The notes beneath the pieces were generated by a model. That model was given only the letters and a program-made list of their open reading frames with translations, was not told the origin of the DNA and searched no databases. A DNA stretch of 64,000 nucleotides, taken from assembly GCA_963772205.1 (NCBI GenBank), contig CAVYXS010000258.1:16325-80324 (forward strand), given 5' to 3'. Position 1 is the stretch's first letter. Every line of letters starts with the position of its first letter. This document shows, in pieces, positions 2,843 to 40,969 of the stretch. The position numbers and the translations under genes are program-made. Origin of the DNA: an uncultured cyanobacterium. GTDB taxonomy: Bacteria > Cyanobacteriota > Cyanobacteriia > Cyanobacteriales > Nostocaceae.

Positions 2843-4367
2843 AATTTCCTTACTTTCTCCAAACTGATAAACTCTGTCGTCTTATGCCAGTATTTAGCTT
2901 CTTAGCGTCTGCACAAGGGTACTTGTCCTCTAGGATGAGGACTTAATTCCTGCTGATCATGGGTAGGTCAAGAGCCTCTATTATGGTTGTTTACAACAAA
3001 TTAGAGGTTATGGCTGTCACAAGCATTAATTTCGGTGATTTTACGGCACTTTTAACCATCATTCGCCATCAGAAATAAATTTTTTTTCTTTTGGCGCTAC
3101 TGTAGCGGTATAACTTTAAGCCACCTTTACAAATTGTTTGAGTTCTACTACATCTAAGTTGTAGATCCCAGAAATTGCAGGTTTTCCAATTTCAGTGCTT
3201 GTCTTTCTTGCCAGTGATTTATAGGTTATTCCCTACTCATCCTGCCAAGCTTCGGACAGCATAGTATTTGAATGGGGTACTACAGCTATACACCCTTTTC
3301 TCCTGCCAATAGAGACGTGAAATTTCTTGTCTCTACATTACGAATAAACAAAGCAGTAGTAGCCGCGCTTATACGGCTATTGAGACATGTTTTGTGACTT
3401 CGTAATTTCATATTAAATACTAGCATGGACTAATAATAGCAAAATAGTTGTTTTATTTTGAATTAAAATTGCTAGTAAAGTTTTATTCTAAATCTCCTAG
3501 CTCACGGAAGGTAAAAAGCGGTGAGGATTGTTCTAGGGCTTGTTTGAGGTAGTGAGTATTGCGGCTAGGCTTTTATAAAAATTCATCTAATTTAGACGAG
3601 CAGTTTTGAGAGTGAGTTACATCCTTTGATTGTCTTGATTGTCAGGATTTTGCTGTCTGTTGATCCGCGTGAGCCAAAAAGTGGTCATAGTATTGTGCAT
3701 ATCTCTGGGAAGAATAAATTTTCCCACATATATATAGTGCTTTGTTGCCACCACCAAATGTTCATCATCAGATTTAACAATTCTATATAACCAAAAATTC
3801 CCCCTTAGTGAATGATTAAGGGATTTTGGCGCCAGTGGCTGCCAATCCTTTTGACATGAATATCTCGTGATAACCTAAAGTAGATTTAATTTGCTGATTT
3901 TTTCTCTTCAGGGGATGATCATAACTCCCTTGAAGAATGTAACTCTTCTCGCGGACACTGCATAACAGGTAAATTCACAAGAGTCAAGAGTCAAAAGAAA
4001 GGAATAGGCAAGAGGCTATAGGAAATAAATATTTTCCTATAGTCGCGTACCCATTCCCGATAGCCTTGGGAATTTGGACTAGTGGACTTTGAGAAACAAA
4101 GTGGAGGGGATTTAAATTTGCAGCGGTAATTACTTTTTTTGCTGTTGCGGCTGGGAGATTGAGACAAATCTCGGCGATCGCCATTCTACAACTAAAATTT
4201 TCATGGTGATCCTGAAACTAAAATCACTAAGTCTTTAATTATCAGCTTATTAACAGCTAACCTAGAATCTAGGGCAAAAAAAGTATAGCTCATTTTTGAG
4301 AGTAACCTGTCTGTAGTCGTGATTTCTCAGGTGGGTATGGTAAGCTTGAAAATTTTGGTTGGTGCTA

Positions 4368-5369
4368 ATGGAACTTCGTTTTAAGGTCATTCGACAGCAA
4401 GAAAATGCCTCGCCAGTAGTGCAAACTTACCTATTGGAGGCAGAACCTAGCAATACAATCCTGGATTGTCTCAATCAAATTAAGTGGGAGCAAGATGGGA
4501 CTTTGGCATTTCGCAAAAATTGCCGCAATACCATTTGTGGTAGCTGCGCTATGCGAATCAATGGACGTTCGGCTTTAGCTTGTAAGGAAAACGTTGGCAG
4601 TGAACTGGCCAGATTACAAAAGATATCATCCTCAGAACCTCAGGTAAATACCAGTCCAGAAATTACAGTAGCGCCTCTCGGTAATATGCCCGTAATTAAG
4701 GATTTGGTTGTAGATATGCACAGTTTTTGGGATAATCTGGAGGCGGTTACTCCTTATGTGAGTACAGCCGCCCGACAAGTTCCAGAACGAGAATTTTTGC
4801 AAACACCAGAAGAGCGATCGCGCCTCGATCAAACTGGCAATTGTATCATGTGTGGAGCTTGCTATTCTGAATGCAACGCCCGTGAAGTTGATTCAAACTT
4901 TGTCGGACCCCACGCCCTAGCAAAAGCTTACCGCATGGTAGCAGATTCGCGCGATCGCCAAACCGAAACTCGCTTAGAAATTTACAACGAAGGTACTCAA
5001 GGTGTTTGGGGTTGCACCCGTTGTTTATACTGCGATAGTGTTTGTCCTATGGAAGTCGCACCACTAGAACAAATAACCAAAATTAAACAAGAAATTCTCT
5101 CACGCAAACAAGCCAGCGACAGCCGCACAATTCGTCACCGCAAAGTATTAATAGACTTAGTTAAAGCAGGTGGCTGGATTGATGAACGTCAATTTGGTTT
5201 ACAAGTAGTAGGTAATTATTTTAAAGATTTAACAGGATTGCTCAGTCTTGCACCCCTCGGCTTGCGGATGATCATCAAAGGTAAATTCCCCCTTTCTTTT
5301 GAATCTTCCGTAGGAACTCAACAAGTGCGATCGCTCATCGAATCCATACAACAACTAGAAAATAAATAG
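4368..5369 (+). CDS. sdhB: succinate dehydrogenase/fumarate reductase iron-sulfur subunit
   Basis: 2Fe-2S motif CRNTICGSCAMRINGRSALAC, 4Fe-4S/3Fe-4S Cys clusters CIMCGACYSEC and CTRCLYCDSVCP. Start chosen at MELRFKV (ORF opens at 4359). Confidence 0.85.
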   Translation: MELRFKVIRQQENASPVVQTYLLEAEPSNTILDCLNQIKWEQDGTLAFRKNCRNTICGSCAMRINGRSALACKENVGSELARLQKISSSEPQVNTSPEITVAPLGNMPVIKDLVVDMHSFWDNLEAVTPYVSTAARQVPEREFLQTPEERSRLDQTGNCIMCGACYSECNAREVDSNFVGPHALAKAYRMVADSRDRQTETRLEIYNEGTQGVWGCTRCLYCDSVCPMEVAPLEQITKIKQEILSRKQASDSRTIRHRKVLIDLVKAGGWIDERQFGLQVVGNYFKDLTGLLSLAPLGLRMIIKGKFPLSFESSVGTQQVRSLIESIQQLENK

Positions 5370-6631: not shown

Positions 6632-7525
6632 TTAATACTTGTCATAATTGGTTGAATTATCTACATCGTCATCTGGCTTGGCGATCGGTTTGTATTCTAC
6701 ATAATCAGTGGGGATCGCGTCATCATCATCGCGTTCTCTGCGAGGAGTTGAGTCACTAGGGGGACGACGCCTCCTGGGTTTGGGGGTAACATCTTCCTCA
6801 CGACTTTCTGGACGCTGAGGGCTGTTGTTACCACGACGGGGAGGTTTTCTGACTTCTCCTGCAGAACTGTCCCAATCATCAACTTCCCTAGGGGCTGAAC
6901 CCCAATCATCTTCTTGTGTTTCGGGACGACTTGCTGGACGCCCTGAACTCCGCCGGCGCGTTTTATCAGTAGATTCCGGCTTTTCTGTGCTGTTGCGCCG
7001 TTCAGAACGACGGGGTGGTTGATCTTCATAGTAGTCATCGCGAGGCGATCGCTCATCCCTGCTACCTCGAATTCGCGCACGCGGGGGGCGTTCCTCGTCT
7101 TCATAAGGTAATGGTTCTAATTCTGCGTCTACCTCGGCTTTATACCTCCGCTCATAGGAATATTTATTACTTACTGGTCGGTCTTCGTCTACAATCGGCG
7201 TATTGCGCTTGGCTTGCTGGGTGGCTATACTTCGCAGTCGAATACTTTCAACTGCAAAGAATACGGTTGTGCCGACTAAAAGCAGCTGACCAAATTGTAA
7301 AATTGGGTCTAGTCGCCAACCTTGGAAGATCAGAATAAAACCACAAAGTAAGCCTACCGCCGCAAAAAATATATCTTGATCTCGTGACAGTTCGGGACGC
7401 ACAGTCCTCAGAAAATACAGTGCTGCTCCAGACACAGCTAGGAAAATTCCTAGAATACTGGCTGAGTTCGCCCCAAAATTTACCTGAGCCAGAATACTGG
7501 CTGAATTCAGCCAAAAATTTATCAT
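6632..7525 (-). CDS. ycf66: Ycf66 family membrane protein with long charged (R/D/E/P-rich) C-terminal tail
   Basis: N-terminus NSASILGIFLAVSGAALYFLRTVRPELSRDQDIFFAAVGLLCGFILIFQGW matches the Ycf66_N domain. The remaining ~200 aa are low-complexity RRxE/D. Confidence 0.75.
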   Translation of the reverse strand: MINFWLNSASILAQVNFGANSASILGIFLAVSGAALYFLRTVRPELSRDQDIFFAAVGLLCGFILIFQGWRLDPILQFGQLLLVGTTVFFAVESIRLRSIATQQAKRNTPIVDEDRPVSNKYSYERRYKAEVDAELEPLPYEDEERPPRARIRGSRDERSPRDDYYEDQPPRRSERRNSTEKPESTDKTRRRSSGRPASRPETQEDDWGSAPREVDDWDSSAGEVRKPPRRGNNSPQRPESREEDVTPKPRRRRPPSDSTPRRERDDDDAIPTDYVEYKPIAKPDDDVDNSTNYDKY

Positions 7526-8207
7526 AAAACCTCGCGGGATGTGGGAAACTCAGCTTTTAAAAGCTGAGAGGGAAACGGCACGAGCGAACGCCACTTGCTA
7601 CAACTTTGGGAACCAAAGCAATGCAGTGACTCCTTTAGTCGCAGTCCCCTTACGGGGGGGTGGTAGATAGAGGAACAGTATTTACCACCTTCCCTGTATG
7701 CCGAGAATCGCCTTGCTGTTCCAGTAATGTTAGCTTAGACCTGTTATCAGAAGCTCAGTAGGCTGAAAGCACTGTTCCAGTGACCTTAGAACTGTTTAAC
7801 TTACAGCGACAGAGCGGGGAACTAGCTACGCATTCCGAGGTGTCGTGACTCAAATAACGGCTACCCTTAGACTACAATCAGGGTGGTCTGGTCAGTACGG
7901 CTTGCTTGATTTCTCTTACAAGCCCAGTCCCTTTAGGGCTGGGTTACTGACTGCTGTTTTCCCAATATCAAATCTATGTTAGCGAGTCACAATTAAAATC
8001 ACTACTCTAATCCGGCACAATAATATAGATTAAAGCTTCAAAGCATCTAGTAAAGAAGCTCTGAAGCTATGTACCTCAAACTAAAAAGCTGATATCTGTC
8101 AGGTAAGTATACCTTGTCCTGGGTTGGAGGAATTGATGCTCCTAGGGGATTAAGGTAAATAGCTGACAGACAATCGATTATGAGGGTCTAATTAACTCCC
8201 TAAATGA

Positions 8208-21389: not shown

Positions 21390-23045
21390 TTAGTTTTTAC
21401 TTTTGAAAGACTCTAACCAATTTTGGACTTGTTCACGGGCAATATCGCGACCACCCAGACCAAAAGCTAGGGCAATAGCAACTGCGATCGCACCTAATAA
21501 TAGTCCAAAAGCTAAATTCACAATATCAGGAGCAACCCCGATTTGTTGGAGTGCCATTGCAGACACTAAAGCAATGATAGATATCCGTGCTACTTGACCC
21601 AAAATTCTTGCTTGGGAATCGCCGGAACTGGTAATGATATTAAAAGCGAGATTTGCCAAAAACAAGCCAATGGCAAATACTACTAATCCAGCTAAAATCC
21701 GCCCAATGATGACTAAAATCCCAGTTACCAGCACTGTCAGCGCCGGAATATTCAGGATATTGACAGCCGCCACAGTCGCAAATAACAAGATACCAACTAA
21801 GACGATAACGCCAACAATTTCTGATGGAGTGTAAGTTGGTGCTGGTGCTGTTGTTCCTTCTTCGTCAGAGAATGCTGATTCCCTTTTGGGTACTGGTAAA
21901 CCCAAGATATGGAAAATATTGTTAAAGCCAATACTTGTGAGGATGCTGGTAACCAGATCCGCCACAAATCGCCCCAAGAAATAGGCAAAAATCAAAATAC
22001 CTGCAGCGGTAAAGATTCCCGGTAAGGCATTGAGAATCTGTTGTAGCGCAGCAATTGCGGGGACTGAGATCGCATCAATTTTTAAAGCATTCAGCGCCGC
22101 GATCGCTACAGGAATCAAAATCAAAATATAGACCAGCAAGCCTATAATATTCGATAGAGATTGCGCTCCGGCAGATGGAGACAGTCCAAACCGACTCCCA
22201 AAATGGTCAATCCCCGTTGTTGCTAGCAAGTTGCTCACAATCCGGCGGACAATATTTGCCAAAAACCAGCCAACTACGCCAATTACTGTCGCTCCAAGAA
22301 TATTTGGCAGAATTGACAGAATCTGTGTAGTCAGAGCTTGTACTGGTTGTAGTGCTTCTTTTAGCCCCAGACTATCGAGAAGTGGGACAAGAAACAGCAA
22401 AAAGATGAACCAGTAAAGCGCAGTGCTAATAGTTTCACTGACAGACAACTGATTGACACTGGGTGTACCGTCTTGTGTTTGTTGATTTAACTGCTCATCT
22501 AGTCTCGCTGCTTGTAGCGCACGTAACGTCACCAGCTTGACGACGGTGGCTAATAACCAAGCAACTCCCAAAATAATTCCTGCACCAAGCAACTTTGGCA
22601 AATAGCCAACAATTTGATTGAGAAAACTATTGAGGGGTTGAGAGGCTACCTGTAGCCCTAGCTTCTCTAAAACAGCTACCACCGTCAACAGAGTGATGCT
22701 CCAAAAGGCTAAACCGGAGATCAATTGCTCCACCTGGGGAACATTGTCTCGGCCTGTCAATCCTGAAGCAATACGGTTATCTATGTCTGTGCGATTGAGG
22801 ATTCCCCTGATAACTGCTGCAACAATTGCAGCAATCACCAACCCAATAAATAAAATTGCTATTGCTTCCAGCAACCGGGGGGTAGACGCCAATAGCTGAT
22901 CAACAATTCCTTGCACACCTGCAATTCCTTGCTTTCCACCAGGTGGATCAGTCGGTAGAGGTGACGATTGCGCCAACAATTTTTGCACCCTCATCGACAA
23001 ATCAACTTCCATCACCTGAGTTATTCCTGGCCAAGTTGTGTTCAT
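21390..23045 (-). CDS. mechanosensitive channel-like membrane protein with repeated conserved TM-helix (MscS-associated) motifs
   Basis: 551 aa, multiple hydrophobic helices with repeated motif (…LLEAIAILFIGLVIAAIVAAVIRGILNRTD…; …ILGQVARISIIALVSAMALQQIGVAPDIVN…). Confidence 0.55.
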   Translation of the reverse strand: MNTTWPGITQVMEVDLSMRVQKLLAQSSPLPTDPPGGKQGIAGVQGIVDQLLASTPRLLEAIAILFIGLVIAAIVAAVIRGILNRTDIDNRIASGLTGRDNVPQVEQLISGLAFWSITLLTVVAVLEKLGLQVASQPLNSFLNQIVGYLPKLLGAGIILGVAWLLATVVKLVTLRALQAARLDEQLNQQTQDGTPSVNQLSVSETISTALYWFIFLLFLVPLLDSLGLKEALQPVQALTTQILSILPNILGATVIGVVGWFLANIVRRIVSNLLATTGIDHFGSRFGLSPSAGAQSLSNIIGLLVYILILIPVAIAALNALKIDAISVPAIAALQQILNALPGIFTAAGILIFAYFLGRFVADLVTSILTSIGFNNIFHILGLPVPKRESAFSDEEGTTAPAPTYTPSEIVGVIVLVGILLFATVAAVNILNIPALTVLVTGILVIIGRILAGLVVFAIGLFLANLAFNIITSSGDSQARILGQVARISIIALVSAMALQQIGVAPDIVNLAFGLLLGAIAVAIALAFGLGGRDIAREQVQNWLESFKSKN

Positions 23046-23510
23046 GGTTTTCTGGAATTAAGGTTAAGTCTTCGCCGAAAACACCTGAGATTTTACTAGA
23101 GTCGATTGTTTAACACAATCTGCACTCACATAAGCTCAATAGTGTTTTGTTTATCAACTTACCAGTAAAAACATTTATGACGCTGATATCAAGAGTAATT
23201 TTTTACTTTGTTAATTATCTTCGTGATTCAGCAGTCAATATTTGCCAAAAAAGAATTAGTTATATTTTTTTCGTCGAAACCCCGCCCCTAATAGACGAAT
23301 TTCTTACCCAAGACCTCTTGCAAAAGTCTCCTAACACCCCACCCCCAACCCCTCCCCGTATACGGGGAGGGGAGACTTTGACGTAAGTCGAAGGCGGGGT
23401 GGGGTTCTTTGGTTTGATTTATGCAAGAGGTCTCCAGTAACCAGTACCGGGTTCCCAGTAGGCTTCATTTTAAGGTACTCTAAAGTGCAGCCAGAGTAAA
23501 AAAATGTAGA

Positions 23511-23957
23511 ATGTCCCAAGTTTTGGCACAATCGATTCAAATTAAAGCCACAGCTACAGTGGTGGAGCGTTGTATTACCGATCTCACCCTCATGCACCGC
23601 TGGCTTAACCCAGTTCTGTGCTGCGAACCTGTGGGTGAAGTTTGGAGTACCGCTGTGGGCAGTCAAAGTCGATTTATAATTGACATACCGATGATTAAAC
23701 CCACCCTCAACACCGTAGTCGTAGAACGACAACCGGGTTTAGTCGTCTGGGAATTTCAGGGCTTTTTTACAGGGCGCGATCGCTGGGAATGTCAACCAAT
23801 AGAAACAGGAACACACCTACTCAACCGCTTCGAGTTCGATATTCCTAATCCCCTAGTCCGTTGGGGTTTCAACACCTTTGCAGCCTCTTGGACTCAACAA
23901 GATATGCAAGCTCAACTAGGCCGACTCAAACGCCTAGCTGAAGAAGTACAACAATAG
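23511..23957 (+). CDS. SRPBCC (START/polyketide-cyclase-like) family protein
   Basis: 148 aa. Fold-family assignment from length and overall pattern; weak. Confidence 0.45.
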   Translation: MSQVLAQSIQIKATATVVERCITDLTLMHRWLNPVLCCEPVGEVWSTAVGSQSRFIIDIPMIKPTLNTVVVERQPGLVVWEFQGFFTGRDRWECQPIETGTHLLNRFEFDIPNPLVRWGFNTFAASWTQQDMQAQLGRLKRLAEEVQQ

Positions 23958-24127
23958 TCAGTTGTCAGTGCTGAGTCCTGAGTTTTCAACTGGAACCGCA
24001 AGGAGTCCCACACCGAAATCTCTGATTCGGTGTTGGGAGGAATTGCGGGCTTGTTTTGTTGCGTCCTGCGACCATTTTCTTGCACAGCAAGAAGAGGTAG
24101 GAGGACAGCGACAAAACAAGCAATCTT

Positions 24128-25225
24128 TTATGCTTTTACACATAGCTTTGTACTCCGTTTGATAAGTTGAACTTTTGCTGGGCTGAATTGCCCAATTCTG
24201 CGCCAGTTGTGGTCATACACAGAAACATTTTTAGTTTTTGGAGTCTGCGTATAGCCACCAATCCAGCCAATATAAAATTTACCCGCTTTTTCAGCTTTCA
24301 CTAAGTCACCAGAACGTAATCCGAATGGCGTAATTGTTCCACCTTTGCGCTTTCTGTTGCCAGGAATATCTTTAACAGGGTTCTCGAAATGAAGCTGACG
24401 ACGGAATAGATTTGGACGCGCAATTATGCGGAATGGTGCAGGTGTAATAGCAACGAATCCTACCCAGCGATGTCCCCGACTATTAGCAGTGTGGAATTTC
24501 TCAAACCGCATGAAGTTGCTAGATGCTAATGCAATCCCGTCATGAGCATGAGTCTCTGGAGTTTGTTTTGATTTGTCTTTCTTGTCTTTAGATAATCCTA
24601 ATTGCTGCCTGAGTATTGAAGTCTGCCACCCTTCTTGTGTATTGGTTGGTACAATTTCACAGAGCCATTCCAGCATCACTTTTTGACCAACCATCACAGG
24701 ACTAAAACCTTTGTCGCCTTTCGCTTTGATGTATTCGTAGGTGATTTGAGTTACAGGAAATAATTTGACTAATTCTTTGGTAATTCGTAATTCTAATTCC
24801 TTGTTAGCGCGAATACTGGGAGGCAATTTATTCTGTTTGCGGTTGTTAAACCTTTTTTGACGGTGCGCCCTTTGATTAAACGTTACTTTGCGATTTATCC
24901 TTCTACCTCGTCTAGCACGTCTCAATAATCGTCTACCATCCATCTTTTTGGTGACATCTGAAAATGGCAATATTAGATGTGCCATAAATAATGTGAATTT
25001 AACAGACTGGACACCAACGCCAGTAAACTTTTTACCAGGGTCTAATCCCAAAGCTATTGATTGAGTGTCATAACCAGACGGTTCCACTAATAGCTGAATG
25101 CCAAAAATATTGAGGTCATTCTGTACAATCTTGGCTTTACCTTCCTTAAGCCAACGTCTAGCTCTACTGGCTTTTGTTGGCATCATGGGTTTACCGTTTT
25201 TATCTAACACTGGAACACGAATCAT
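24128..25225 (-). CDS. isrB: IsrB-like OMEGA RNA-guided nickase (IscB homolog lacking the HNH domain, IS200/IS605 superfamily)
   Basis: N-terminal RRXRR/PLMP domain MIRVPVLDKNGKPMMPTKASRARRWLKEGKAKIV; RuvC-I IALGLDPGKKFTGVGV; Arg-rich bridge helix RRLLRRARRGRRINRKVTFNQRAHRQKRFNNRK; RuvC-II ITYEYIKA; RuvC-III THAHDGIALASS. No CxxC…H…N HNH insertion between RuvC-II and III. 365 aa. Confidence 0.8.
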   Translation of the reverse strand: MIRVPVLDKNGKPMMPTKASRARRWLKEGKAKIVQNDLNIFGIQLLVEPSGYDTQSIALGLDPGKKFTGVGVQSVKFTLFMAHLILPFSDVTKKMDGRRLLRRARRGRRINRKVTFNQRAHRQKRFNNRKQNKLPPSIRANKELELRITKELVKLFPVTQITYEYIKAKGDKGFSPVMVGQKVMLEWLCEIVPTNTQEGWQTSILRQQLGLSKDKKDKSKQTPETHAHDGIALASSNFMRFEKFHTANSRGHRWVGFVAITPAPFRIIARPNLFRRQLHFENPVKDIPGNRKRKGGTITPFGLRSGDLVKAEKAGKFYIGWIGGYTQTPKTKNVSVYDHNWRRIGQFSPAKVQLIKRSTKLCVKA

Positions 25226-25451
25226 GGAGATAATCCTCTCGTGTAAGTTGTAAGTCCCTTAGCTCACCATTACCAAAATGTCCTTTCTGCAAGCACCACT
25301 AATCAGATGGTTTGTAAATAATCCAGACTCGGGAAACATCTGGAAGTACGTATCAGGTAATGGCTTGTGAGCAGTAGTCATCTCTTAGTTGCAAGCTGAT
25401 TCTTGCAAGCCTACACTGCACCGGAGGTCAGTGTAGGTAGTTGACTTGTCC
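25226..25451 (-). ncRNA. candidate omega-RNA (guide RNA scaffold) of the IsrB element
   Basis: Immediately 5' of isrB on the same strand. Minus-strand sequence has strong hairpins (CCTACACTG-N10-CAGTGTAGG; CTTGCAAGaatcagCTTGCAAG) and a long-range helix GCTCAC…CCATTACC / GGTAATGG-TGAGC. This is the usual omega-RNA position for IscB/IsrB. Confidence 0.5.
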
Positions 25452-26270
25452 TCATCCCCCAATCTCCACAAGCAGCCGATTAATGACAACCGCATCATCG
25501 GCGTTAGGAACCTGAGCCAGATAAGTTTGGAAGTCCTCAGCCGCTTGGGAATAATGACCAAGTTGATAGTAAAGAAGCCCGCGATCGCGCAATTCTATGC
25601 TGACATCAGGAAACAGCAGCAAAATGCGTTCCACCGCCGCGAGACTTTTTAATAAATTCTGCTGTTTGAGGTAAATATATTTTAAATTCGTCAGCATCCG
25701 TGCTAAAAACTGCCGATTACTCACCGTGGCTAAAAATTCCGGTTTTAGTGTCACAGGTTGCTGAAACATTCGCGAAAGCCGTTCTTGACAATCTTGTGGA
25801 AATATGACCTCACCTCGATTAAATGCATCAACAAAAATTTCCACATCGCAAATATCTGGGCGAATCAAGAAATGACCAGGCATTCCCACCCCCACCATCG
25901 GAAAACCAATTCGTCGAGACACTTCCAGATAAACCAGCGCCAAAGTAATTGGAATTCCCAGCCGACGGTCAATTACATCATTAAAAAAGCTATTGCGAGG
26001 GTCGTAGTAGTCTGTTTTATTCCCAGAAAACCCCAAATCTTCGTAGATATATTTATTGATACATTTAATCACCCGCAACGGGTAGCGCGACTCAGGCAAG
26101 CGTTCTTCTAGTTCCACTGCCATTGTATCCAGTCCATGAATGTATTCTTCTGGATCAAGGTCGGGATATTCTTCTTGAGCAATATACAAAGCTGCCTTTG
26201 CAAAGTCAATATGCTCGTCAGGTTGCTGAATTTCCTGGTAAAAATATTGTCTCGCTGACGAGAAATTCAT
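25452..26270 (-). CDS. SirB1/transglutaminase-like family protein with C-terminal TPR-like region (UPF0162)
   Basis: 272 aa, motif GFPMVGVGMPGHFLIRP typical of the transglutaminase-like/SirB1 family. Confidence 0.6.
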   Translation of the reverse strand: MNFSSARQYFYQEIQQPDEHIDFAKAALYIAQEEYPDLDPEEYIHGLDTMAVELEERLPESRYPLRVIKCINKYIYEDLGFSGNKTDYYDPRNSFFNDVIDRRLGIPITLALVYLEVSRRIGFPMVGVGMPGHFLIRPDICDVEIFVDAFNRGEVIFPQDCQERLSRMFQQPVTLKPEFLATVSNRQFLARMLTNLKYIYLKQQNLLKSLAAVERILLLFPDVSIELRDRGLLYYQLGHYSQAAEDFQTYLAQVPNADDAVVINRLLVEIGG

Positions 26271-27329
26271 AAGTAATTACTCAGTGGAGGTATGAAAGTG
26301 CAGCGGAAGCGTGTCAACCTTCAACACGGTTCGGTTAGTTTTTTGATTTTTCCAAGATACCTCCTACCCCTCTTAAAAAGGCTTGCTCTTTACCCCTTTT
26401 TAAGGGGGTCGCTGCAGGCGGGGGTATCTTATCCGAACTGTATTGGGTCAACTTTCATCTTAGGTAAATTCAGCGTCTTTGGAAATGTTTTATAAAGGTT
26501 TTACCTAATAAATCTATCTTTAGTATGAAACTTCTTTAATATCATGATTTTTCATTGACACAAGTCTAGATTTAGCTATCCCTTTGGCATGAATGCGGAA
26601 ATTGAAATACAGCACTTTGCAAGTAAATGAAGTACACCCTCCCCAATACATACGGGGAGGGTTAGGGTGGGGTATTTTTGTACCTCACCAACTCACAATC
26701 TGCTGTATTTTTGATTTTGCACAATGCCATTTTCAGAAGATGTATCCCACATCAAAGTCCAATGCCATAGGACTGGGCTTTTTCCCATCAGCAGGTTTTT
26801 TAAGTAAAATTACTTAAAATAATTACTTATAGAAGTAAGATTAAGTATTTTTTCAGTAACATCACAGCTATATTATGACCCCATAGTAGGTATAATTAAT
26901 TTTAATTAAGTTCAGTAATTTCTAAGTATATCAATTCTGATTGACGCACACAAAATATACATTCACTATTGCTGAATTCCTTTATCAGCCTTGATAAATA
27001 CAACTTTTCGTATCCAGTCCAGTTCGATAATTAATCCAAAAAATGTATTATTTGTATTAATTAAGCCCTAAACCCTTTTCATTTTATGAGTTGAGCAGGT
27101 AGGATTTATAAGTATGAGGGCGAGAAAAAAAACAAACCTTGCTCCCAACCGGAAAGACCAAAGCAATATAAATGACTTAAGTCGGATGTATTGCTAGCTG
27201 TCTCGGAAATAAATATCAAATTATCAAAACCAACCTTTAGTAAAGCTAGAGATGAGAACGCTCAAATTTAAATTCTCATTTTCAAGCAATTTTTTCCGCT
27301 GTTCAAAACTACCTTCTGGAGTACATTTC

Positions 27330-28040
27330 ATGGCTATTTTCGCAAAAAAGCTGGGTTCATTAATCGGTACGTTATCTGCTCTAACAGTATTACCAATAGC
27401 TTTTGCTAAACCAGCTTCAGCCACTTTAGTTTATGGTTCAAATATTGTCACCAACGGTAGCTTTGAAAATACACCTACACCTTTAAGCAATGGTACTTAC
27501 GGAGATTTTTCTTCCATTCAAGGATGGAACTTATTATCTGGTTCTTCCAGCAACGTTATTGAAGTACAAGATAACGTTGCTGGAAGTCCATTTGATGGTA
27601 ACAACTTTGTTGAATTAGATAGTACTGCCGTCACAGGTATTTACCAAACCTTGGCAACTACAATTGGCCAAACCTACCAAATTTCATTTGCTTTCTCACC
27701 ACGCGGAGGAACAGATGCAGCTCATAATATACTAAATGTCAATTGGGGAAATCAATCGGTTGCTTCTCTCACCGCCAATGGCGCCGGACTAAGTCTGAAA
27801 CAGACAGCGTGGAATACTTTCACTTATAACGTTGTTGCCACAAGTACAAGTACTATTCTAAGTTTTAATGACTTTGGCGCTGTATCCGATAGTTACGGTA
27901 CATATTTAGATGCCGTGAGTGTGACTACTGTCACATCTGTCCCCGAATCTGGTTCAATTATGGGTCTTCTAGCTTTTGGTGCTATTGGTGCTACTTCACT
28001 TCGCAAGCGCAAACACCAGAAAGTCACAATTCAAGCTTAA
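27330..28040 (+). CDS. secreted DUF642-like domain protein with C-terminal PEP-CTERM sorting signal
   Basis: Signal peptide MAIFAKKLGSLIGTLSALTVLPIAFAKPASA. C-terminus VPESGSIMGLLAFGAIGATSLRKRK (PEP-like motif + TM + basic tail). Start at internal ATG 27330 of ORF 27252..28040. Confidence 0.7.
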   Translation: MAIFAKKLGSLIGTLSALTVLPIAFAKPASATLVYGSNIVTNGSFENTPTPLSNGTYGDFSSIQGWNLLSGSSSNVIEVQDNVAGSPFDGNNFVELDSTAVTGIYQTLATTIGQTYQISFAFSPRGGTDAAHNILNVNWGNQSVASLTANGAGLSLKQTAWNTFTYNVVATSTSTILSFNDFGAVSDSYGTYLDAVSVTTVTSVPESGSIMGLLAFGAIGATSLRKRKHQKVTIQA

Positions 28041-39386: not shown

Positions 39387-40969
39387 TTACTGCCAATTTC
39401 TCAACCGAAAGCGCACTGGCATTTTATCGGACGGATAAATTAACAGATTTTGCTGTAATTCTTCCAAAGAAGAACGACCGTTAACTAACTCCCAGTCGAA
39501 GTAGCGGAGCAATAATGCTAGCATCAGAGTTCCTTCTAGCATGGATAGATGCTCTCCCAAGCAACGATGAAGCCCTGAGCCAAAGTCTATCATTGGCAGT
39601 GAACTAGTTTCCTTATCCTTGTCTAACCAACGTTCTGGCAGAAATTCCTCCGGATTAGCATAGACTTGTGGATCTCTTCCAGCAGCAAGCATTGACCAGG
39701 ATACTCTTGTACCGCGAGGAATGACTTGACCCTCAATTACAGTGTCGCGTTGAGTCTCCAATGAAGTTGAGCCAGAAGCGACTGAATAGAGGCGCAATGT
39801 CTCCTTGAGAATTGCACTAATATAAGCCAATTCTTTGAAGCTTTCTGTATTAATACAGCCTTTGCTTTGCCAAACTTGGTCAACTATGTACCGTGCTTGC
39901 TGAAAAACCTTTTGATTTAAGCTCAACTCTCCGACTGCAAAGGATAAAGTATGGGCTGTTGTGTCAGTACCAGCTATTAAGAGTTCAACAGATTCTGCTA
40001 TTAATGTTTCGCGATTGTATTTTGGTTCTTTAGCAGCAATTTTGACTAACATTGATTCAGGAAACAAAGGACTGACTTGTGGTAAATCGGTCTGGCTTTG
40101 TTCTCTCATCTGTAAAGCTGAGGTCTACACGGGGAGTGAGAAATTCCTCTCAAATATCGCCTTGCTGCCCAATAATCTCGGGAATTCTTAGTGGGCAAAT
40201 ATTTCATCCATATCTTCTCTCCAGTAGCTTGGCGTAGGAACCGATAGCCAACAACAGACATTGCTTCATACACCTTGAGAACTTCCAGGATAGGCCCTTA
40301 TGACTAGTACCGTTCTATCCACAGGAATGCCTAAGTACTAAACTAGGAAATTACCCTCATTGTTAGTTCGACAAACAGAGGATCTACCTGAACTTCTTTT
40401 GGTAGCGCAGCTTCTTTCAGTGTCTCAATTACTTGTTCGCAGGCTTGGTTAATAATTTCCACATATTTGGAGAGACTGCTAGAACTGAATTCCGGTTCCA
40501 AGCCTTGCGTCGCCACTGCCACTCAGTCCCAGTTTCTCCTATCATAATGGGACTAGTAATATCGTTCCAAGCTTTGCGTAATCGCTCAGAATCTAATTAA
40601 GCTACCATCTCTCATCCCATTGACAATGGTATCTTCGATAACTTTTGGTTTACTTAAAACGACAACTGGAGAACCGCCATTCCACATCACATACATCGGC
40701 CCTAGCTGTTGACTCCAATCAAACATTAATTGGAATAATTTTTTCTGTTTCACTGCTGCTAATATTTGCGGAAGATTTCCTAACAGCCAGTGTTTGGGAG
40801 GAGAAGGGAGTGATTCTAGCGCTTTGTATGTGTTCTTTTGTTTCCACCAGCGCCACCCAATTGTTCCCGCTATGGTAGTAACGCCTAAGACTGTGGCTAA
40901 AGATGGAAGTGAGTCAGAATAAGCAATCTGAGCAGTAATGTTTTGAAACATGAATCCGCCTTTATCCAC
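39387..40969 (-). pseudogene. cytochrome P450, disrupted. N-terminal fragment 40586-40969, C-terminal fragment 39387-40109; the ~475-nt middle has no open frame.
   Basis: C-terminal fragment has I-helix AGTDTT, ETLRL (K-helix ExxR) and heme-binding FGSGLHRCLG. N-terminal fragment has a membrane-anchor/P450 N-terminus. No continuous ORF joins them. Confidence 0.7.

Follow-up and report, generated by a model that had tools for sequence, protein, structure and literature searches.

A probable non-autonomous IsrB element with defined ends and a matching empty site in an uncultured cyanobacterium

The closest described systems to the element discussed here are IsrB nucleases, the HNH-less relatives of IscB, and the structured omega-RNAs that guide them. 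In the IsrB of Desulfovirgula thermocuniculi (DtIsrB; structure 8DMB) the target-adjacent motif (TAM) was measured as TTGA and is read by R323 and Q326, while for the cyanobacterial orthologues DsIsrB and CwIsrB, which are also biochemically characterised and whose RNAs fall into subgroup B2, it is NTG (PMC9581776). According to Hirano et al., group-B RNAs share a layout of an adaptor pseudoknot formed by SL2-SL5, a nexus pseudoknot after the stem S2 and a terminal hairpin that bears the ribosome-binding site (PMC9581776). Here we compare with these systems a locus in a stretch of 64,000 nucleotides (hereafter the window) from an uncultured cyanobacterium of the Nostocaceae (assembly GCA_963772205.1, contig CAVYXS010000258.1, positions 16,325 to 80,324). 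In our opinion, the locus very probably is a non-autonomous element of the IS200/IS605 superfamily, of the ISC1/IsrB type, that consists of an omega-RNA gene, an isrB gene and two subterminal hairpin ends. All the sequence-level features that we looked for in an IsrB, and the insertion and hairpin features of an IS200/IS605 element, were found there. The following positions are needed from the outset:

23990..25445, minus strand: whole IsrB element, 1456 bp, delimited by an empty-site contig (L040) and by the conservation boundaries of related loci
24128..25225, minus strand: isrB coding sequence, 365 residues, identified by its match to DtIsrB (8DMB), by Pfam RRXRR and by invariant residues
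23986..23989, minus strand: TAM and insertion target TTGA (TCAA on the plus strand), outside the element and retained in the empty site

The minus-strand open reading frame (ORF) 24128-25225, which appears in the ORF list of the window with its 365 residues, does lie between two convergent genes, as the first-pass annotation of this DNA had it. On one side stands an SRPBCC/Polyketide_cyc2 gene on the plus strand, with the last base of its stop codon at 23957; on the other stands a transglutaminase-like/TPR (SirB1-like) gene on the minus strand, co-oriented with isrB, with its stop codon at 25452-25454. A search of public assemblies for the exact proteins encoded on either side brought up further contigs. 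In two of them the SRPBCC and SirB1-like genes are only 38 nt apart, and the metagenome contig L040 reads ...GAGTTTTCAA|TTGTCCTCATCC..., which joins position 23989 directly to 25446. Once 23990-25445 is removed, L040 equals the flanks of the window at 609/609 positions, and if the junction is moved by one base either way the sequence of L040 is no longer reproduced. Because L040 is identical to the flanks without the element, we consider the ends at 23990 and 25445 to be exact. The annotation had assumed that the element fills the whole interval between the two stop codons, but its ends lie inside that interval: the insertion is 3' of TCAA (plus strand), within the original host spacer of 38 nt, of which 32 nt and 6 nt remain beside the element. 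Comparison of the filled with the empty site shows no target-site duplication and no notable terminal inverted repeats. The filled site is also present in the contigs L038 and L039, which come from other samples; L038 (filled) and L040 (empty) apparently belong to one sampling series, the 'BUCK21-1' samples.

Further copies, from which the ends and the target-site motif could be expected to emerge, lead to the same result as the empty site. For this comparison 37 related genomic loci were fetched, all of them cyanobacterial and nearly all from filamentous heterocyst-forming groups. Upstream of the gene, similarity among them starts abruptly at GTCAACTACC, which is position 25445 of the window. 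On the 3' side of the gene, the copies have in common the stem-loop that follows the stop codon, then an imperfect palindrome and, beyond a short variable linker, GTTGA plus a purine. Of about 30 related loci, nearly all have TTGA at the 3' junction (L010 has TCGA), and the 5' flank differs in each distinct locus among the same 30 or so.

The protein itself gives a consistent picture. Among all chains of the Protein Data Bank (PDB) its best match is DtIsrB (8DMB; E 3.7e-50, residues 2-361), with 38% identity from end to end in a pairwise BLASTP comparison. Its domains and the residues that matter for function align as follows:

Domain order of isrB: PLMP/RRXRR, RuvC-I (D62), bridge helix, RuvC-II (E164), linker replacing HNH, RuvC-III (H226, D229), TAM-interacting domain (R343, Q346)
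RuvC-I: D62 in GLDPG (AVDPG in DtIsrB)
RuvC-II: E164 in ITYE (IVTE in DtIsrB)
RuvC-III: H226 and D229 in THAHD, within ETHAHDG (THAND, within ETHANDA, in DtIsrB)
TAM readers: R343 and Q346 in RRIGQF (R323 and Q326 in DtIsrB)

Pfam RRXRR (PF14239) covers residues 4-167 (E 3.2e-48), a region that aligns with the N-terminus of DtIsrB; the arginine-rich bridge helix RRLLRRARRGRR aligns to RRNLRRARRYRK of DtIsrB; and residues 296-359 align with its TAM-interacting domain. The bridge helix and the residues D62, E164, H226, D229, R343 and Q346 show no variation in a set of 21 homologues (69-92% identity). The protein is longer than DtIsrB by 9 residues in the REC linker and by 17 after RuvC-III, and such insertions have also been described for CwIsrB and DsIsrB (PMC9581776). 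Thus the IsrB order of motifs, the absence of an HNH insertion and the intact RuvC residues, all of which the first-pass annotation had read from the letters alone, hold in the alignment with DtIsrB. As far as sequence can tell, we are dealing with a full-length IsrB whose catalytic residues look intact.

It could be argued that the protein is some other RRXRR-domain protein, or an IscB with a degenerated HNH domain. Pfam and NCBI annotations indeed offer nothing beyond 'RRXRR', and the NCBIfam model guided_IscB (NF040563) does match the N-terminal half (residues 6-167). We find this hardly credible. The alignment to DtIsrB runs from end to end and includes the C-terminal TAM-interacting domain, whereas IscB structures in the PDB match only residues 4-129, and the 106.6 bits of the IscB model fall below its cut-off of 175. 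Furthermore, the spacer between RuvC-II and RuvC-III comprises 61 residues that align to the DtIsrB linker, and a Pfam scan of the 365-residue protein returned no match to an HNH family.

Homologues of this IsrB are numerous: 2699 are found at E <= 1e-5, many of them in Nostocales, including some on plasmids of Scytonema and Nostoc (PCC 7120 among them), and some genomes carry several copies. Among named relatives, those from Gloeotrichia echinulata are nearest. In public records the homologues are labelled only 'RRXRR domain-containing protein'.

The first-pass annotation also supposed that the nuclease is guided by an omega-RNA, and a structured RNA with covarying pairs is in fact found directly upstream of isrB:

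25226..25445, minus strand: omega-RNA scaffold, 220 nt, starting GUCAACUACC, from an alignment of 13 sequences (A1)
25396-25401 with 25301-25306, minus strand: adaptor pseudoknot, pairing AAUCAG of the second hairpin loop to CUGAUU of a later one
within 25328-25336 with 25254-25261, minus strand: nexus pseudoknot, UCCCU with AGGGA, after the long stem
25226-25236, minus strand: terminal hairpin, containing the ribosome-binding site

Rfam was of no help in finding it. Its HEARO model (the IscB-type omega-RNA) gives no match at E <= 10 on 25100-25600, none at E <= 1 on 22000-28000, and none, again even at E <= 10, in 13 close related loci, the gathering threshold of 83 bits not being reached. 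Both this threshold and that of the NCBIfam IscB model are missed, as expected of the HNH-less branch. With no HEARO match from Rfam, we relied on comparative alignment to establish the RNA. RNAalifold applied to alignment A1 predicts 59 pairs, and compensatory change is seen in 30 of these; besides the elements listed above the scaffold includes 5' adaptor stems and a long central stem. We added both pseudoknots to this structure by hand and used as controls the same partners slid by 1-3 columns. The structure then has 70 pairs and is 97% paired, against 29-45% in the slid controls; 32 of the 70 pairs are altered on both sides, each of the two pseudoknots has at least one compensatory change, and 0 of 500 shuffles reach the observed values. 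A profile built for the RNA detects a homologue upstream of nearly every fetched isrB locus, even in a clade of about 50% protein identity; in the window it finds a single copy, and its score of 244.8 bits lies inside the range of the other copies. Comparative evidence of this kind shows that the 220 nt upstream of isrB are a conserved structured RNA with the group-B layout of IsrB.

The scaffold varies among relatives, and three observations may be recorded here. In L002, L006, L008 and L011 the omega-RNA has an extra stem-loop of about 45 nt (columns 167-214 of alignment A1), which sits between the hairpin of the adaptor pseudoknot and the descending side of the long stem and amounts to a modular variant of the scaffold. 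In a Scytonema locus (L001, 3847-4030) the first ~70 nt of the scaffold are gone and the adaptor is swapped for unrelated sequence while the gene is intact, and guide function has probably been lost. In a Nostochopsis locus (L028, 2362-4588) the omega-RNA is intact (2362-2614) and the protein match restarts at residue 168 at position 4001, about 0.9 kb beyond where it would be expected; isrB seems to be interrupted there by an insertion.

A guide would have to be supplied by the sequence that precedes the scaffold, which is not part of the element:

25446..25465, minus strand: guide-encoding flank, outside the element, directly 5' of the scaffold, AGAUUGGGGGAUGAGGACAA

We take the guide to be 20 nt long, as in DtIsrB (PMC9581776). 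The flank takes in the end of the SirB1-like gene, with its final coding bases and its stop codon, and 6 nt beyond it, and its sequence is unique in the window. Read in the orientation of isrB, the empty site is ...AGATTGGGGGATGAGGACAA|TTGAAAAC, that is, the 20 nt of the presumptive guide with TTGA behind them. What comes after these 20 nt in the filled site is GTCA, which is without the third-position G that the arginine reads. As the guide lies outside the element, transcription of the RNA must come from outside as well. The guide RNA is probably made by read-through from the SirB1-like gene, which is the simplest source because this gene is co-oriented and ends 6 nt upstream. In a crude count over the related loci, the nearest upstream ORF is co-oriented in 16 and opposite in 8, and for IscB it has been reported that upstream genes tend to be co-oriented (PMC10055086).

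The element has the following hairpins towards its ends:

23996..24048, plus strand: subterminal imperfect palindrome, distal to the omega-RNA, 6 nt inside the boundary; the left end in the TnpA convention
25409..25438, plus strand: subterminal hairpin, 7 nt from the boundary at 25445; the right end in the TnpA convention
24050..24121, minus strand: long stem-loop immediately behind the stop codon of isrB (-21.4 kcal/mol, z = -6.5)

Subterminal hairpins at both ends are the usual arrangement in the IS200/IS605 superfamily. Folded as DNA, the palindrome at 23996-24048 reaches -17.1 kcal/mol (z = -5.3), and it is conserved across loci in the sense that its sequence is replaced while the palindrome is kept. 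The hairpin at 25409-25438, also folded as DNA, reaches -10.6 kcal/mol (z = -2.4), with covariation in 6 of its 9 pairs; the first stem-loop of the omega-RNA is this same hairpin read on the minus strand. The stem-loop at 24050-24121 is kept in 8 of 14 close copies, with pairing retained although the sequence of the outer stem differs; in 3 of the 14 a shorter hairpin stands in its place, in 2 it is missing, and L010 is too divergent for it to be placed. It may belong to the 3' end of the mRNA or be part of the transposon end. Hence the hairpins that the first-pass annotation saw in the 3' flank of the gene are both real by their z-scores, but the palindrome is the left end and not, as was suggested, the right one. 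The plus strand is the top strand; TCAA, the target motif, precedes the left end on its 5' side, and the right end is the one with the omega-RNA. IscB elements are arranged in the same way (PMC10055086).

These observations can be joined into a mechanism. Transcription out of the SirB1-like gene would yield an RNA whose first ~20 nt are flank and serve as guide, and whose remainder is scaffold. The complex of IsrB with this RNA would recognise the guide-matching flank only where TTGA follows it. Such an arrangement would exist only in the empty site left by excision, as the occupied site has GTCA. A Y1 transposase (TnpA) encoded elsewhere would excise and insert the element as single-stranded DNA by means of the two hairpins, IsrB would nick the non-target strand of the vacated site, and repair from a chromosome copy that still bears the element would restore it (restorative homing). 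Multiple genome copies are typical of such cyanobacteria and would aid this process. Because filled and empty alleles with identical flanks occur, apparently in one sampling series, it is tempting to go further and to see in this locus an active natural IsrB nickase that, without making a double-strand break, keeps its transposon in place through restorative homing in a cyanobacterium with multiple genome copies. We put this forward only tentatively, and would sooner expect it to need revision than to stand in full; nicking and homing are deductions from the sequence and its arrangement.

Several points weigh against our reading of the locus. The presence and absence of the element give neither polarity (insertion or excision) nor date. 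No Y1 transposase is encoded in the element or among ten window ORFs that were tested, seven of them of the right size and all seven unrelated host proteins, so the mobilising TnpA in trans is assumed. The promoter scan found 7 sites where 5.4 are expected, which is the level of chance, and terminator counts are likewise at chance. The RNA of the window has two private changes that occur in no other aligned copy: an insertion of two nucleotides, CU, between the first two stems (25362-25367) and a U-to-G change at 25330, which breaks one pair of the nexus pseudoknot. An AlphaFold2 model computed with an alignment of 21 sequences (mean pLDDT, a per-residue confidence score, of 48.6; pTM, a global one, of 0.28) is too poor to give structural support; the alignment probably lacks depth, and the protein takes up its fold around its RNA. 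Finally, a 2026 review (PMC13565253) lists TnpB and IscB, and not IsrB, as nucleases for which restorative homing has been demonstrated, and an IsrB only nicks.

Some of these points would equally suit a stranded copy, which transposed once, whose RNA or protein is now inactive, and which persists by inertia. No TnpA was found in the window, the RNA has its private two-nucleotide insertion and one broken pseudoknot pair, and damaged relatives do exist, as in L001 with its loss of ~70 nt of scaffold and L028 with its interrupted gene. We nevertheless consider this explanation unlikely. The ORF has its full length and has kept all residues in which the 21 homologues do not vary, the RNA profile score falls in the range spanned by the other copies, both ends of the element are intact, and the coexistence of filled and empty alleles with identical flanks in environmental samples argues for recent activity.

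The absence of an adjacent TnpA, already remarked in the first-pass annotation, led to the proposal there that the copy is either non-autonomous or domesticated. Absence of a transposase from the element is normal for the family, since tnpA is found close to no more than about 1.5% of iscB genes (PMC10055086). A domesticated IsrB would be one recruited by the host at a fixed locus, for example for RNA-guided regulation of neighbouring genes, and one could point to the lack of an adjacent transposase and to the overlap of the guide with the 3' end of a host gene. However, the locus is not fixed, as an allele with identical flanks and without the element exists; all related copies are in unrelated contexts; the nuclease residues are intact, unlike those of known nuclease-dead domesticated relatives; and the transposon ends and the adjoining TAM are preserved. 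Domestication therefore seems to us very improbable. Of the two proposals it is the non-autonomous one that we favour, because of the empty site with identical flanks and the different flank of each related copy, and the element is best read as one that was recently mobile or recently lost and that would need TnpA to be supplied in trans.

BLAST searches with the whole element against the window and every fetched locus turned up no additional copies. The word 'solitary', used for the element in the first-pass annotation, calls for some qualification, since a 90%-identity protein cluster includes several proteins from single Gloeotrichia genomes and since a second RNA of related type lies in the window:

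7724-7951, minus strand: HEARO (IscB-type omega-RNA), full-length Rfam match, 129 bits

No ORF for IscB or IsrB follows this RNA, the next gene being Ycf66-like (6632-7525), and it seems to stand alone as an omega-RNA, about 16 kb away from the IsrB element. The spacing between PsbX and Ycf66 is the same in all contigs of this organism that were compared, so no empty site and no polymorphism were seen for it, and BLAST of its region against the window and the fetched loci found no further copies. One might think of the IsrB using this RNA in trans; isrB, however, has its own conserved cognate RNA, with which the HEARO RNA has only the 5' adaptor in common.

Two unrelated observations can be added. 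In the related locus L013, from an uncultured bacterium, a cobalamin riboswitch (4307-4491) lies about 1.7 kb downstream of the isrB copy and is probably an unrelated neighbour. In the window, a minus-strand ORF of 127 residues (40586-40969) matches only the first ~60 positions of a cytochrome P450 profile, and it may be a fragment or the mis-delimited start of the adjacent gene.

The locus holds nothing categorically new: IsrB, its RNA, the TTGA motif and the non-autonomous biology of IS605-type elements have already been published. Its value, in our opinion, is that of a clean natural example with exact ends, in which the matching empty site combines a guide match with a TAM. Further, the 'RRXRR' labels and an RNA that Rfam misses show that annotation under-calls IsrB systems in heterocystous cyanobacteria. 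The protein is also a mesophilic IsrB candidate for nickase tools, and the natural population may allow testing whether a nick alone supports transposon homing.

As for known systems, the element belongs with the ISC1 group of ISC transposons, the same single-gene, HNH-less, Cas9-like and usually transposase-free class, from which we found no difference (PMC13565253). With HEARO RNA (RF02033) its omega-RNA shares the 5' adaptor GUCAacuaCC, two small hairpins, a closing stem and the position upstream of a nuclease gene; the difference is that it has no Rfam match, whereas the true HEARO at 7724-7951 reaches 129 bits. The IS605-family IscB of Geobacillus stearothermophilus is likewise non-autonomous, with a scaffold derived from the right end and a guide outside the element, and likewise has a TAM equal to the transposase target motif, a co-oriented upstream gene and the donor joint as its natural target; it differs in having an HNH domain and making double-strand breaks, whereas IsrB only nicks (PMC10055086). 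DsIsrB (Dolichospermum sp.) and CwIsrB (Crocosphaera watsonii) come from the same phylum, and we liken them to the present protein by their published description (PMC9581776). With DtIsrB (8DMB; PMC9581776) the present system shares the domain order over the full length, the RuvC residues, the phosphate-lock Asn, the Arg and Gln that read the TAM, the TTGA target motif and a group-B RNA with the SL2-SL5 adaptor and nexus pseudoknots. The differences are that DtIsrB is from a thermophile and the window from a mesophilic cyanobacterium, that the scaffold before the start codon has 220 nt here and 262 nt there, and that DtIsrB is without the insertions of 9 residues in the REC linker and 17 residues in the RuvC domain that are present here.

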